DNA of 64,000 bases from Candidatus Hydrogenedentota bacterium (lineage in GTDB: Bacteria > Hydrogenedentota > Hydrogenedentia > Hydrogenedentales > SLHB01): positions 163,431 through 227,430 of the forward strand of contig BTWA01000006.1 in NCBI GenBank assembly GCA_045863295.1. The letters are read 5' to 3'. Shown here piece by piece: positions 45,001-51,000 of the stretch. The position numbers are program-made. The number at the start of each line of letters is the position of its first letter. Positions within the stretch are counted from its first letter, which is position 1.

Positions 45001-48000
45001 TGCGTTATGCTTTCGGGAGAAACCGCTGCCTCCTCCAACGCTTGCCGTGAGGCGGCCAGAGCCAGAGGCAACGATTCGACTGCGTATTTTCTCATTCGTT
45101 CGTCGATCGTCGGTCCAAGCGTTGCTTTACCATTGGGCTTGGGAAAGAAGGAATGCCTATCGGATGTGCCTTCCGGCCCGTCCAACACTACGCTATGCCT
45201 GCGTTTGACACCGGCCATGCGATACAACAACGCGAGTTGGCGACGTTGATCCTCTCCATCGCAAAAGTACCGTTGCGCATACGCCAGCGCCTCTTCCATC
45301 TCGATCGAATGCGCCGGCAACCCTGTTCCTTGTCCAAGAATTGTGAACTGCATAATGCTCTACCTCTAACGCACTGCCTTGTTAATATGATGCACTACGG
45401 GCCACGCGGCGAGCGGAACCGTATCAAGTATCCGAATCGAGTGCGATATCCATGTCGGATGCCGCAAGGCAATCGATATCGCACGGCAAGGCCAAAGCCG
45501 CTTCGAAATCACACGGCGGTAAGTCTGCGCCCACTCCCTTTGCAGGCGCGGATCAAACTGTCGCACACCCCGCAAAACGAACTGCGCGACGGCCGTCCCG
45601 GACGCCAGCGCCCAACTCATCCCTTGGCCGGTAAACGGTTCCACATAGCCCGCGGCATCGCCAACCACAAACGCACGATGAGCCGACAACCGGGTCACCC
45701 GGCGAGTCAGCTCCGGTGTGCCACGCCATTGAACCGAACAAGCCCATTCCGCATCGGCGTGACCGGCCTCACGAAGCACCGCGCGCGCGGCAGCCGCAAG
45801 CCCACCCTGTTCCTTTACAAAGCGAACGTCGAATGCCGCACCTACGGCGCCACGCTGCCTTTCGTCGCTCGTAATTCCCACGTACCCGCCTCCGCCACAT
45901 GCCATGTGAATGACCCCTGGCTCGTACCAGTCAGGTAGTGGCTCGATCGTGGCCGCTGCTCCAATGCGAGACGAAGGATACGGCGCCGAATCAATAGCAT
46001 CAATCGTATGCAGGAGGCGGCCGCCAAGTCCGTCAGCGGCAACCACAATCCGGGCGCGCACCGATACAATTTCCGCGTCGCGCGTCAACCGTACCACGCG
46101 GTGTTCGCGCTCGGACTGAATCATCGTCGCGCTAGTCGACGGCAGAAACACGGCACCGGAACGGCAGGCTTTCTCCGACAGCGACTCATCCAGCACCTCA
46201 CGGGATAGCACTCGATACCCCGGCAGGCGAACATTCGCCCGTTGCCCGGCCGCGCGCAACTCCAATCGATCCACGTGACACGCCCTGCAATCATCAAGCA
46301 ACGACTCGGCGCCGAGTACAATCAGGCTTTGCTGCGCATTTTGATTGATGCAGCATCCGCATACTTTCCAGCGTGGAAAAGCCGCCTTGTCTACCAATAG
46401 CACATCAATACCCGCGCGAGCCGACTGAATCGCGGCTGCGCACCCCGCCGGACCCGCCCCAACGACCAGCAGGTCCCAGGTGCGCTGTGTAACGCTTGCC
46501 AGCGCGCCAATGCTCATGACTTCCGCCACACCATGCGCCAGCGGAATGGCCAGTGGCGCGTAAATCTGGCCTCAGTCAGACCCGCGGATCCGGCGATAGC
46601 CCGTATCTCTGGAAGGCGATAACCGGCTCGAACCGATGCAGGACCATCAAAACGGACTACATCCGACCGAGTCAGGGAATAGCAGGCGACATAGGCCAAG
46701 GCAACGTGCCATACGGAACGTTCCAGATCATTGATCACAAGCAGTTCCTTGCAGGCATTCGCCATGCCTTGCAGTAGAACAAGGGTGTCATCCAATTCCA
46801 AGTGGTGAAGAAAAAGGCCGCACAACAAGATGTCGTATCCCTCCGGAATACCTTGCTTAATGACATCATGCTGAAAAAAACGCACATTGGCTCCCGATTG
46901 CCCGGCCGTGGCTTCGGCAAATCGTACGGCTTGGGAATGCACATCGCATCCATGAATCTCCACAGGGCAGGAACTGCGCTGGAGTTTTTTCGATAGCGCG
47001 ATAGGGACGTCTCCCCCCCCAGTGGCAATATCGAGGATACGCAATGGCTTCACAGAGTTCGTGCGATTGCTCAAGTAGTCGTCTATGGCTGTCCATACCA
47101 GGGTGCTTGTCAGACTGACGGAATTGATTCGGCGCAGCGACTGCAACGCATGAACGTGCCGCTCGGAATCCAAATCGGGTTGATCCATAATCTCCGGCAC
47201 GACACGACGTTGTTGCAGTCCCGTAAAAAGATTCATCCACTGTCCCCCGTGTCAGATTCAAGGAGCGAGTCGAACGGGCATGGGCGTATGGAGCCGAAAC
47301 GTTCGATCGCGGTGGGGGGATAGATCGGAGACGGCTGCCGCTTAGTAGCGCACCATGGACGGATCGTTGGCCGCCGCATACGCATCGATTCCGCCGGTGA
47401 GATTACGGACCTTCGTAAATCCGGCCTGACGTAGTAATCCGGCCGCCATAGCCGACCGCATTCCATGGTGACACATGCACACGATTTCTTTCTCGCGGCA
47501 CGACTCAAGTTCCGTGATGCGCTGCTTGACCTCTTGTAAGGGCACATGTATACACGGATCCAACTTAACAATCGACAATTCTTCCGCGGAGCGGACGTCG
47601 AGAAGTACAAAATCTTCGTGTTCCCGTAACTTGATGGCCAATTCCATTGGGGTGCAATCGGCCGCATGAACCGCCATTATTGCGTGGTCCTTCTTATATA
47701 TTCCAAGCGCCAAGAGAATTGAGTCAAGGATTCCCAATACAGACTGTCCTAACGAGTGGAATACAATTCGCCACCCGCCTCGCGAAAAGACTCCGACATG
47801 GCCTGCATTCCCGCGGCTTTTGCCCGCTCTTCGTCAATTCCCAGCTTCGCGGCGTAATCCCGGATCTGCTGGGTGATTTCCATTGAACAAAACTTCGGAC
47901 CGCACATCGAACAAAAGTGCGCCAGCTTCGCCCCTTCCGCCGGCAAGGTGGCATCGTGAAATTCACGTGCCCGCTCCGGATCGAGCGACAAATTAAACTG

Positions 48001-51000
48001 ATCCTCCCAGCGAAACTCAAACCGTGCCAGGCTCAACGCATTATCCCGTACTTGCGCGCCGGGATGCCCCTTGGCAAGGTCCGCTGCGTGCGCCGCAATC
48101 TTGTACGCAATCACACCCTCCCGCACATCGTTTTTGTCGGGCAGGCCCAAATGCTCTTTGGGGGTTACATAACAAAGCATAGCCGTTCCGTACCAACCAA
48201 TCATCGCCGCACCAATTGCCGACGTGATGTGATCGTACCCGGGCGCCACGTCGGTGGTGAGCGGTCCAAGCGTGTAAAAGGGCGCCTCGCCGCACCATTC
48301 CAACTGTTTGTCCATGTTTTCTTTGATCATGTGCATGGGCACGTGTCCGGGCCCTTCATTCATCACTTGCACATCCTGGGCCCAGGCACGCCGCGTCAAT
48401 TCGCCTTGCGTCTTCAATTCCCCAAACTGGGCATCGTCGTTCGCATCCGCCAGACACCCTGGACGAAGGCCGTCGCCGATGGAAAAGGACACATCATAGG
48501 CCGCGCAAATCTCGCAAATCTCGTCCCAATGCGTGTACAAAAAATTCTCGGAATGATGCGACAAACACCATTTTGCCATAATGGAACCGCCGCGGCTAAC
48601 GATACCCGTGATCCGTTTCTCGGTCCAAGGAATGTATCGCAACAACACCCCGGCGTGAATCGTAAAGTAGTCAACGCCTTGCTCGGCCTGCTCGACAAGC
48701 GTGTCCCGGAACAACTCCCAAGTGAGTTCTTCCGGCCTCCCTTCCACCTTCTCAAGCGCCTGATAGATTGGCACAGTCCCGATCGGCACGGGCGAATTGC
48801 GCAGGATCCACTCGCGTGTCTCGTGAATGTTGGGGCCCGTCGACAAGTCCATCACCGTGTCCGCGCCCCAACGGATGGCCCAAACCATCTTCTCCACTTC
48901 CTCTTCAATGCTGGAAGCAACAGCGGAATTGCCGATATTCGCATTGATCTTTACAAGGAAGTTCCTGCCAATGATCATGGGCTCAATTTCAGGGTGGTTA
49001 ATATTCGCGGGAATGATCGCACGCCCTCGCGCCACCTCGTCACGAACAAACTCGGGCGTTATTGCCTTGGGAATGGACGCGCCCCAGCTTTGCCCGGGGT
49101 GCTGGCGCATCAGTGCCTCTGCGGTCTCTTGCAGCCGCATATTTTCTCGGATGGCAATATATTCCATCTCCGGCGTCACCACCCCCCGGCGCGCGTAGTG
49201 CATCTGCGTTACGCGCGAACCGGCTTTCGCACGCAATGACCGGCGTGTACGGACAAAGCGAACGCCCTTCAACAAAGGATCCGAGGCGCGCCGCCGCCCG
49301 TATTCGGAGGTAATGTCATCCAGTTCCACGACATCCCGCCGCTCCTGAATCCACCTCAAGCGTACAGGGTTCAAACCAAGCCGCACATCGATGTCCACTT
49401 CAGGATCGGTGAACGGGCCGGACGTGTCGTATAACGTGATCGATGGATTGGCTACACTGATCGGATTGCCCTTTTCCCGGGTGGGTGTTTGGCTAATTTC
49501 GCGCATCGGCACACGGATGGAAGGGTCGGATCCTATTACATGGATCTTTCTGGAATTGGGAAATCCATCGCGTGTGATACGCTGGGATTGGTCTGCTGCG
49601 AAAACATCTTCGCGCCTGTTGGATGGCACCGCCATGTCAATCTCCTCGATACTGCGTAACCGGCCACGAACCCCAGGGTAGCGTAAACACTCTCCGCTCG
49701 GATGGCAGCCAAAACTCAAAGGCCCAATCATAAGTGCGTGGCCTATAATCAATGGGTAAAACCAAGACCGCACAACGCTAGCAGGTAAGCACTGGGAATT
49801 CAACGCACACGCGCGCAAGCGACTCCATAGTAAATGCCGTCTCAGCAAGCCCTTAATTGCCTGTTCCAAACTGCCGCAGGGCATTCCCCTACACCCTGAC
49901 GCACTGCACACCGACGCCATTCGTCATCGTGCTCCCGATACTCAACTCAACCCGCCGGGGGTACACTCTACTTGGTGACAGCGAGGACGTAACGTGCGAC
50001 GTGGGTCCAGTTCGGTCCGCTGTCCCACATGCGCCGGGATTCTCCGGCGCGGCATCAAAACTTGCAACTCACCCCCTTTAAGGCACAAAGGAGTACCCAC
50101 CATGAACCGAAATCAGATGGCAGGAACCTGGACTCACTTCAAGGGCGAATTGAAGGAACGCTGGGGTAAGTTGACTGACGATGATTTGAAAATCATCGAA
50201 GGCAAACGCGAAAAACTCGCAGGAAGACTCCAGGAACGCTATGGCTTTCCAAAGGAACAGGCGGAAAATGAGGCGCGCGCTTTCTACGAGTCTCATCATT
50301 GAACGCGACATCGCGGGCAATGGGTTATGAACCCTCGATGATCAAGTGACCGTTTCCACATCCGCAAACGGGCGGTCTGCCGGCAATATCGTCTGGGACT
50401 GCGGCACGTGAGCCCAGTTCAGACCCAAAGCGGTCATGCCGTCCGTCAAAGGAGGCAACTTATGAAACGTCTACTTAGTATCGCGGCAACAGGCGGTTTG
50501 ATCGTGCTGGCCGGCTGTGCGGAGGGCACACCAGGTGGCCCCGGAGTCACGGAAGAAGCGTCGGCCCCCGCGCCAACCTATGATCCCATGACGCCGCCCC
50601 AAATCGCCATGAACCAGACAGAGCAGACATTCACTCTGGATACACCCATGCTGGGTGCTTCAGTCACCCAGGGTGAATCGTCCGAAGTACCCATCGGCGT
50701 CCAGCGCGGTAGTGAAATGAATCAGACGGTCACCGTCGAGTTCGACGGCGTTCCCGCGGGTGTGACCATTACGCCTGAGAGCCCAACGTTGATTCCGGGA
50801 CAAGGCGAGACCAACGTGACCATCTCAGCGTCTCCAACTGCGCCGGCCGGTGAGTACACCGTGAGCGTAAAAGGCAGGCCCGAAACCGGCGCCGTGGCCG
50901 AAACGCAGATGGACATAACCGTCGAGGAACGGCCGGAGCCTGGATCGGAGGTCACCCCGAGTGAGCCTCCGGCAACTCCCGCGCTCTAACCCCCCATAGT

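Follow-up and report, generated by a model that had tools for sequence, protein, structure and literature searches.

No TPP riboswitch in the thiC leader of a Hydrogenedentota genome or in nearly all other genomes of its phylum

Of all riboswitches, the TPP riboswitch is regarded as the most widespread, and thiamine genes are taken to be under its control by default. The radical-SAM enzyme ThiC is costly and is regulated in most bacteria. ThiR, an archaeal transcriptional regulator of thiamine genes that contains a ThiN domain, is a protein that replaces the TPP riboswitch in a lineage without it, and the HMP-PP riboswitch (thiS motif) is a very small RNA that lies before thiS, senses a thiamine precursor and could hide in a short leader. 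Exceptions to riboswitch control are on record: by the account of Sun et al. (2013, PMC3766115), Bartonella, Lawsonia and others have thiamine biosynthesis genes without a THI element, and such cases are presented there as exceptions to near-universal riboswitch control, found in 6 of 255 genomes.

The genome studied here (G000; 96% complete, 88 contigs, 6.3 Mb) belongs to the Hydrogenedentota and resembles the Bartonella and Lawsonia exceptions as described in that source, since it too combines thiamine genes with the lack of a THI element. Yet the exceptions described there are single species among 255 genomes (PMC3766115), whereas in the Hydrogenedentota the whole phylum is concerned and the FMN and cobalamin riboswitches are kept. 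Upstream of thiC, where a TPP riboswitch (RF00059) is expected, the G000 leader offers only a lone CTGAGA hexamer. The domain that characterizes ThiR is absent from G000 (ThiN, PF10120: no match at E <= 0.01 in this genome, with 5 of 14 control genomes positive) and no candidate operator was seen. As for the HMP-PP riboswitch, a scan of the thiH-thiS spacer of G000 against all Rfam families (cmscan, E <= 5) gave no relevant match, although Rfam 15 may not hold that riboswitch.

The window, the whole stretch of 64,000 nucleotides of G000 that was analysed, carries thiC and its surroundings as follows (positions within the window):

47749..49635, minus strand: thiC (phosphomethylpyrimidine synthase), long form, 628 aa, assigned by NF006763, TIGR00190 and alignment to relatives
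47749..49920, minus strand: thiC open reading frame at its full called extent, with the coding start placed at ATG 49635
49642..49647, minus strand: GAGGAG ribosome-binding site, 6 nt 5' of the thiC ATG, read from the sequence
49636..50101, minus strand: thiC leader, the 466-nt divergent spacer between the thiC ATG and the csbD-like gene
49840..49845, minus strand: lone CTGAGA hexamer behind a 5-bp hairpin, similar to one of the two conserved TPP aptamer boxes
49952..50101, minus strand: the 150 nt closest to csbD, with two GC-rich hairpins (z = -1.93; 7 of 200 shuffles fold equally well)
50102..50302, plus strand: csbD-like gene for a small stress protein, divergent from thiC (PF05532 CsbD, 66.3 bits)

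Profile scores confirm the predicted gene at 47749-49635 as a full-length thiC at the equivalog level. Counted from ATG 49635, its product scores 1048.8 bits against NF006763 (cut-off 650), covering profile positions 4-564 of 564, and 711.9 bits against TIGR00190; the model of the BzaB exception, TIGR04386, gives 411 bits where its cut-off requires 700. The E. coli ThiC is 70% identical to it (tblastn), and the start is placed by alignment, relatives sharing the N-terminus MAVPS... at this ATG. The gene is apparently monocistronic, and the TCGAGGAGATTG of its ribosome-binding site is also present before thiF in the same genome. The divergent csbD-like gene reaches 95.6 bits against NF007748, below the cut-off of that model. 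A 144-aa open reading frame past thiC (47233-47667) is probably not a gene, having no family match and an implausible composition.

Since thiC starts at 49635 and the csbD-like gene at 50102, the spacer spans 49636-50101. When 49550-50200 was scanned against all 4227 Rfam families at E <= 10 (cmscan), the sole match was a chance one at the ribosome-binding site, which bears out the first-pass annotation in so far as it had reported a 466-nt thiC leader without a TPP riboswitch. The fold of the whole leader is not significant (z = +0.5), and the 150-nt windows closest to thiC range from z = -0.94 to +1.07; the only mildly structured window, 49952-50101, is more probably a feature of the csbD side. 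The leader is single copy in the genome, has no blastn match to the leaders of 80 relatives, contains no sigma-70-like promoter in a consensus scan and shows none of the lineage promoter boxes found in other genera. A divergent TPP aptamer was considered at the CAGGC...GCTTG hairpin with its CTGAGA, and is attributed to chance: the second box (ACCTGA...GCG.AGGGA) is missing, and positions 49840-49845 were scored neither by the Rfam TPP model in the all-family scan nor by a genome-wide nhmmer profile. The closest ThiC proteins in two public collections, one of genomes and one of metagenomes, where the stretch itself and nearly identical entries may be hidden, are 75-78% identical by best segment (one partial match, 77%) and are encoded in a different gene context. 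The best explanation of 47749-49635 is thus an ordinary thiC behind an ordinary spacer that is neither conserved nor structured.

The thiamine genes themselves are present: the thiC, thiD, thiE, thiF, thiG, thiH and thiS genes listed by the first-pass annotation were all found again, together with thiL. With these genes present and no aptamer, G000 is a riboswitch-free prototroph as far as gene content can indicate. The genes lie at four loci, namely thiC, thiF-thiG-thiH followed by thiS-thiE, nupC-like-thiD, and thiL. In the phylum, thiC is present in 124 and thiE in 126 of the 135 genomes, and thiD in all 41 genomes sampled for it. Some thi genes stand inside strings of housekeeping genes (hemY-thiC; HU-thiE-thiC-tatC), and in G001 and G002, both deep lineages, the order is HU-(GT2)-thiE-thiC-tatC with short gaps. 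Leaders of less than 100 nt are frequent among the thi genes of the phylum, and thiS either directly follows thiH or is read from a TATAAT-type promoter that leaves an untranslated region of about 20-50 nt. Many thi leaders are too short for a riboswitch or lie within housekeeping operons.

The TPP riboswitch is missing from the leader, from the genome and from the phylum in spite of the thiamine genes. Over the whole of G000, RF00059 (gathering score 54.3 bits) gave no match at E <= 10, with 150 of 249 first-look candidates scored and 13 of 14 control genomes positive, and an nhmmer profile built from 14 aptamers found nothing better than E = 1.8 in all 6.3 Mb, leader included. Neither a score at the gathering level nor the two boxes of the P1-P5 structure was found in this genome. 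At the level of the phylum, RF00059 exceeds its cut-off in one of 135 genomes (G021), on a contig of 1129 nt before thiM, a gene found in only two of the 135; this contig is probably a contaminant. Seven sub-threshold RF00059 matches were rejected, five of them lying within open reading frames of unrelated Pfam families and two in stretches without a Pfam-recognised frame, and none of the seven stands beside a recognised thi gene. In each genome, the 135-genome scan scored only 26 out of some 200 first-look candidates, a gap that is closed for thiC because a gene-anchored, filter-free search covers the thiC leaders. That search used R1, a covariance model built from the 14 aptamers and run with its filters off, which detected three of three held-out positives (49.5-75.7 bits) and gave at best 10 bits (E = 1.4) over 80 Hydrogenedentota thiC leaders and the other thi loci of G000. 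Altogether, 123 of the 124 thiC-bearing genomes lack a TPP riboswitch. The phylum-wide absence first reported holds.

The loss is specific to TPP, because the cobalamin riboswitch (128 of 135 genomes) and the FMN riboswitch (39 of 41 sampled genomes) are retained; the same figures uphold the earlier statement that RNA detection works in these bins. A whole phylum thus keeps two other vitamin riboswitches and has dropped this one. Elsewhere the aptamer is common at the expected place: among loci from other phyla, 13 of 18 have it no more than 1.2 kb upstream of thiC (cmscan), as do 50 of 64 additional loci from other organisms (nhmmer, a set that includes the five cmscan negatives), which makes 63 of 77 distinct loci from named genomes, and it is present in 59 of 70 metagenomic loci that encode close ThiC relatives and offer 500 nt or more of upstream sequence. 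Two other sampled phyla, examined with the same tool, have no TPP riboswitch at all in 33 of 48 and 23 of 53 thiC-bearing genomes, so that the description of the riboswitch as "otherwise near-universal" was overstated. Since the Hydrogenedentota and at least two further phyla hold many thiC-bearing genomes without it, the rule of the TPP riboswitch is weaker in uncultivated bacteria than one would expect from surveys of cultured genomes. The comparison with the 6 of 255 genomes given in PMC3766115 suggests that riboswitch-free clades are much commoner in uncultivated phyla, and the Hydrogenedentota are a clean, lineage-wide example of a kind of exception already known.

Several scenarios may explain how the phylum manages without this element. 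The best reading, to which we give about even chances, is that the thi genes are plainly transcribed and do not respond to thiamine. The TPP riboswitch would have been lost at or before the base of the Hydrogenedentota, the FMN and cobalamin riboswitches being kept, and neither a conserved leader RNA nor a conserved operator would have taken its place. The thi genes, now scattered, would depend on plain promoters with short untranslated regions or on strings of housekeeping genes; their transcription would lack a thiamine response at the leader level, being constitutive or under global control only, and whatever balancing thiamine pyrophosphate receives would come from effects at the enzyme level. 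The riboswitch was seen to be absent, specifically so for TPP, and conserved cis elements to be lacking; from there we infer that no thiamine-responsive control exists. Failure to detect an element does not show that regulation is missing, and the tests made here would overlook a transcription factor whose operator is degenerate or varies between lineages, a small RNA, or control exerted at the thiF, thiG and thiL leaders of the phylum. The G000 spacer is long (466 nt), and ThiC is a costly enzyme, regulated in most bacteria; both count against thiamine-blind transcription.

Alternatively, the Hydrogenedentota could use a thiamine-responsive regulator of a new type, be it a DNA-binding protein that senses TPP, a small RNA, or leader RNAs of single lineages such as the thiC leader of genus g17; we regard this as a tentative proposal. 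If true, it may extend to the riboswitch-free, thiC-bearing clades of the two other phyla, which would make them a joint place for discovery. Its first form, somewhat unlikely in our judgement, is a trans-acting regulator installed after the loss of the riboswitch, namely a transcription factor that senses thiamine or TPP, or else a small RNA, acting at the thi promoters and encoded apart from the thi genes. ThiR offers an archaeal precedent, and vitamin-level regulation is still in use in the phylum, because two other vitamin pathways keep their riboswitches. Conserved thiC promoter boxes that depart from the consensus also exist in some lineages: three f1 genera share TAGCCT plus GCAAGGTGC, the arrangement in g13 and g17 being TTGAYN-N17-TAGCCT followed by GCAAGGTGC, and in g10 the downstream box with a variant -10 box, while f10/f11 have GAATGCGATCAT overlapping the -10 box. 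Together with a terminator-like hairpin in the thiC leader of one genus, these boxes hint at local control. Against a regulon, GCAAGGTGC occurs at the thiS-thiE and thiD loci about as often as chance would have it (4 matches vs 2.8 expected), and the G000 leader has none of the boxes. Moreover, in 65 non-redundant thiC leaders of the phylum, k-mers, palindromes and direct repeats do not rise above shuffled sequences except for these lineage-limited boxes, so that a common operator-like element is missing. The thiS leaders (26, extracted from 30 thiE loci) have no common sequence, and no regulator recurs among the 70 open reading frames flanking the 30 thiE loci or upstream of 14 nupC-thiD loci. 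The ECF sigma/anti-sigma pair that diverges from nupC-thiD in G000 was rejected as a regulator, being missing upstream of nupC in 14 other genomes, and the ThiN domain is lacking as noted above. The only blocks conserved between the thiC leaders of different genera proved to be the 3' end of hemY (protoporphyrinogen oxidase), which is seen at 23 of 81 loci, 79-615 nt away from thiC.

The second form supposes that some lineages of the phylum control thiC by leader RNAs of their own, new riboswitches or attenuators, the G000 leader possibly being one of them that stands too alone to be recognised. It seems improbable, even if the length of the G000 leader is far above what is needed and the thiC leader of g17 (five genomes) joins a conserved promoter to a conserved 5' segment, and has a hairpin with different sequences in two subclades as well as a conserved AAAYCCTG-N6-CAGGGTTTT stem with a T-run about 100-130 nt downstream. 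The g17 element is limited to its genus, the best outside match having E = 0.054 (nhmmer); double changes occur in only one of its 21 predicted pairs and its terminator stem is weak. The G000 leader is no more structured near thiC than shuffled sequences and has no comparable relative, the closest ThiC proteins standing in another context, and many leaders of the phylum are shorter than 100 nt. No relevant Rfam family was found in 18 leaders, two deep-lineage operons and the thi loci of G000 (cmscan, E <= 1 to 5).

That the absence is an artefact, aptamers having been missed because they diverge strongly or lie in parts of the bins that were not assembled, is hardly credible: the bins are incomplete, the 135-genome scan left most first-look candidates unscored and one real aptamer is present in a bin (G021), but the filter-free model gave nothing above 10 bits on 80 intact thiC leaders, the single-contig genomes G069 and G034 were negative both in the genome scan and, with their leaders L032 and L058, in the filter-free search, the cobalamin and FMN riboswitches were recovered in 95% of the same bins, and the sole match precedes a gene missing from 133 of 135 genomes.

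Thiamine-blind transcription remains the preferred reading, and the interpretation offered by the first-pass annotation stands in part. Its core, a lack of riboswitches specific to TPP in genomes that have the thi genes and keep the cobalamin and FMN riboswitches, is retained; near-universality was overstated. The claim that another mechanism controls thiamine synthesis found no positive evidence, since no conserved RNA, operator or neighbouring regulator emerged from the 65 thiC leaders, the 26 thiS leaders and the flanks of the 30 thiE loci; the annotation had itself named no candidate. Its suggestion of a place to look for a new thiamine regulator is sound in that a defined set of riboswitch-free genomes now exists, in which thiamine control is absent or of an unknown kind, but the finding is a negative result and the hunting ground comes without a candidate regulator.

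For annotation, caution is needed, as linkage to a riboswitch cannot reveal thiamine transporters or salvage genes in these lineages. The conserved nupC-like-thiD pair is a lead to such genes. The TPP profile did not match the leader upstream of nupC, and the only similarity among such leaders (three f1 genomes, 400-545 nt, 67-70% identity) is read as a coding gene. Separately, G069 has two near-threshold matches to Acido-Lenti-1 some 400-600 nt upstream of its thiC, which are apparently unrelated to thiamine.

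The thiC gene of the genome that holds the window (G000) lies on the reverse strand, with a divergent gene upstream.

47749-49920, reverse strand: reading frame of 723 codons, from the ORF list
47749-49635, reverse strand: thiC, 628 aa, ATG at 49635 (NF006763, 1048.8 bits, cut-off 650; TIGR00190, 711.9 bits)
49636-50101, reverse strand: thiC leader, 466 nt, the spacer between thiC and the csbD-like gene
50102-50302, forward strand: csbD-like gene, next upstream of thiC and divergent from it

The first 96 codons of the longer frame appear non-coding. The 628-aa protein shares 70% identity with E. 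coli ThiC and starts at the same N-terminus as its relatives, and GAGGAG is found 6 nt 5' of its ATG. Since this start and the csbD-like gene bound the spacer, the 466 nt that the first-pass annotation had attributed to the leader are exact. Given an apparent separate promoter 3' of the stop codon (judged by eye) and a following 144-aa ORF that is probably no real gene, thiC looks monocistronic.

The absence of a TPP riboswitch was probed in four independent ways, which confirmed and strengthened the earlier claim for G000 and its leader. A scan of the leader with all 4227 Rfam families (E<=10) returned a single chance match at the ribosome-binding site. The TPP riboswitch model RF00059 had no match in the whole genome at E<=10, with 13 of 14 control genomes positive. 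A covariance model of our own, built from 13 aptamers upstream of thiC in other phyla and one from the Hydrogenedentota bin G021, was run with all filters off on the thiC leaders of 80 Hydrogenedentota loci (800 nt before each gene, contig permitting) and the other thi loci of G000; no Hydrogenedentota sequence scored above 10 bits (E 1.4), and three held-out positives 49.5-75.7 bits. Finally, the same alignment was made into an nhmmer profile, which picked up the aptamer at 50 of 64 held-out thiC loci from other phyla; over all 6.3 Mb of G000 its best match had an E-value of 1.8.

The claimed absence also extends across the phylum, where RF00059 exceeds its cut-off in 1/135 genomes. This sole match (L001; 57.9 bits) lies in front of thiM (PF02110, 282.7 bits) on a contig of 1129 nt, G021:C152. 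Because thiM is present in just two of the 135 genomes (G021 and G032), the contig probably entered the bin as a contaminant or was imported recently. Seven sub-threshold matches (E 0.004-1) were also found in the phylum. Five were rejected, as they fall within unrelated ORFs (rhamnosidase, aldo-keto reductase, hydrolase, S41 peptidase and a SurA-like protein), and the other two fall where Pfam recognises no ORF. The cobalamin riboswitch is present in 128/135 of the same bins, and the FMN riboswitch occurs in 39 of the 41 genomes sampled from the order (G000 included); therefore RNA detection works in these bins, as had been supposed, and it is the TPP riboswitch specifically that was lost. 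That the phylum lost the TPP riboswitch is thus well supported.

Thiamine genes are present, in agreement with the annotation: thiC in 124/135 Hydrogenedentota genomes, thiE in 126/135 and thiD in all 41 sampled. In G000 the set is spread over four loci, three of them on other contigs.

Contig C34: thiF-thiG-thiH, a gap of 130 nt, thiS-thiE
Contig C5: nupC-like gene overlapping thiD
Contig C12: thiL

Neither thiM nor thiB was found in G000 with E. coli queries. The gene directly 5' of thiD (C5 103186-105319, outside the window) encodes a NupC-like concentrative nucleoside transporter (PF07662, PF01773). The pairing recurs at 16 of 30 thiD loci (L210-L239), several single-contig or high-quality genomes included, and the transporter may take up a thiamine pyrimidine precursor. 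Upstream of the pair there is no conserved leader or regulator; a divergent ECF sigma and zinc-finger anti-sigma pair in G000 (C5 101918-103076) was discarded, as it occupies this position in none of 14 other genomes.

How unusual this absence is depends on the anchor of the comparison. Upstream of thiC, the aptamer was found at 63/77 loci of named genomes of other phyla (13/18 by cmscan and 50/64 by nhmmer, the 64 including the 5 cmscan negatives), at 59/70 loci from metagenomes that had 500 nt or more of upstream sequence, and at 0/81 in Hydrogenedentota, which is very unusual. When whole genomes are counted, the picture is less extreme than the description of the riboswitch as near-universal suggests. 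The same tool found RF00059 in 49 of 61 genomes sampled from the phylum of G138 (Opitutia), 36/61 of that of G135 (Candidatus Binatia; G135 and G200-G259) and 28/61 of that of G137 (G137 and G140-G199). Among genomes with thiC, the riboswitch is missing from 23/53 in the G135 phylum and from 33/48 in the G137 phylum (32/46 when G163 and G188, both unpublished, are set aside); all 13 genomes of the latter phylum that lack thiC have it. Ten such thiC-bearing negatives were re-tested with laxer small-search filters (E<=1) and all remained negative; in at least six, thiC or a sub-threshold match lies on a contig of at least 1.3 Mb. In the relevant passages of their reports, Sun et al. (2013; PMC3766115) found the riboswitch in 249/255 genomes and all 24 groups, with Bartonella and Lawsonia carrying thiamine genes without it, McCown et al. 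(2017; PMC5473149) placed it in "nearly all bacterial lineages", and Barrick and Breaker (2007; PMC2258182) noted groups poor in riboswitches, such as Aquifex. No full text pairing TPP riboswitch with Hydrogenedentes, or riboswitch with Hydrogenedent, and no report of a phylum-wide loss were found, points on which supplementary taxon tables could bear. Hydrogenedentota provide a clean example, on the scale of a whole phylum, of a class of exception known before, and the counts suggest that thiC-bearing, riboswitch-free genomes are far more common in uncultivated bacteria than published work would indicate. The value of the observation lies mainly in this broader class and in the defined set of genomes that it offers to the search for regulators.

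The further claim, that another mechanism controls thiamine synthesis, gained no positive support: no shared leader element, operator-like repeat or recurring DNA-binding neighbour was found. The G000 leader is single-copy in its genome, matches no other thiC upstream region (all-against-all blastn, 500 nt), contains no consensus sigma-70 promoter that we could find, and as a whole folds no better than shuffles (z +0.5). Its six 150-nt windows nearest thiC range from z -0.94 to +1.07, and the csbD-proximal one alone reaches -1.93. The window holds no candidate regulatory element to pursue. Cross-genus similarity did appear in the blastn comparison, and was rejected as a conserved leader: it is the 3' end of a protoporphyrinogen oxidase gene (TIGR00562) that directly precedes thiC, in the same orientation, at 23/81 loci (e.g. 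L053, L043 and L067; gaps 79-615 nt), a synteny recurrent across several families of the order.

In the simplest model, to which we give even chances, the thi genes would be transcribed from ordinary promoters or inside housekeeping operons, without thiamine-responsive leaders. The thiS-thiE pair is kept in 26/30 loci, and thiS either directly follows thiH or lies behind a TATAAT-type promoter with an untranslated region of ~20-50 nt, which leaves too little room for a riboswitch; in G000 the promoter is TTGACA-17-TATAAC and the untranslated region ~50 nt. In the deepest lineages, G001 and G002 (L208, G001:C16; L209, G002:C6), a short form of thiC is embedded with thiE among housekeeping genes, in the order HU-(GT2 glycosyltransferase)-thiE-thiC-tatC with short gaps. 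Searches by cmscan of the other thi loci of G000 (E<=5), and of 18 further leaders and the two deep-lineage operons (E<=1), returned no relevant family.

A trans-acting regulator of an undescribed kind comes next, and is a distinctly more doubtful explanation. No palindromes or direct repeats with 0-12 nt spacing exceeded shuffles in 65 non-redundant thiC leaders, no DNA-binding protein recurred among 70 neighbouring ORFs at 30 thiE loci, and the ThiN domain is absent from G000.

In the same 65 leaders no 6- to 8-mer exceeded local shuffles, bar lineage-limited promoter boxes. Three genera of family f1 have in common a thiC promoter region of unusual sequence, TTGAYN-N17-TAGCCT and then GCAAGGTGC. 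Genera g13 and g17 have it in full; g10 has the box behind a variant sequence. At other thi loci the GCAAGGTGC box shows no enrichment. Families f10 and f11 have GAATGCGATCAT over the -10 box.

Lineage-specific leader RNAs rank third and appear improbable. The g17 leaders (L009, L011, L012, L013, L014) conserve TTGATT-N17-TAGCCT and a GCAAGCTGCGCAAAGGTGC segment, and have a common hairpin whose sequence differs between subclades. They also conserve a weak-terminator-like stem, AAAYCCTG-N6-CAGGGTTTT with a T-run, ~100-130 nt downstream of the promoter. This element, which may be a genus-level attenuator, is confined to the genus by nhmmer, has no Rfam match and covaries weakly (one compensatory pair only). 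Boxes and stem are leads, not findings. An artefactual absence, finally, is very unlikely in view of the cobalamin and FMN riboswitches detected in these bins.

In another genome (L032, G069:C1:2772157-2773106), two matches to Acido-Lenti-1 RNA (RF01687; local 743-775, forward, and 526-558, reverse) lie in opposite orientations some hundreds of nt upstream of thiC and score 36.5 and 25.9 bits (gathering score 37). Downstream of thiC in the window (44262-47236, reverse strand), a type III polyketide synthase-like gene (DpgA/FabH-like) stands with genes for a geranylgeranyl-reductase-family flavoprotein and a methyltransferase, an arrangement we take to be reminiscent of alkylresorcinol or alkylquinone clusters. 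Three consecutive tRNA genes occupy 38429-38771 on the same strand.
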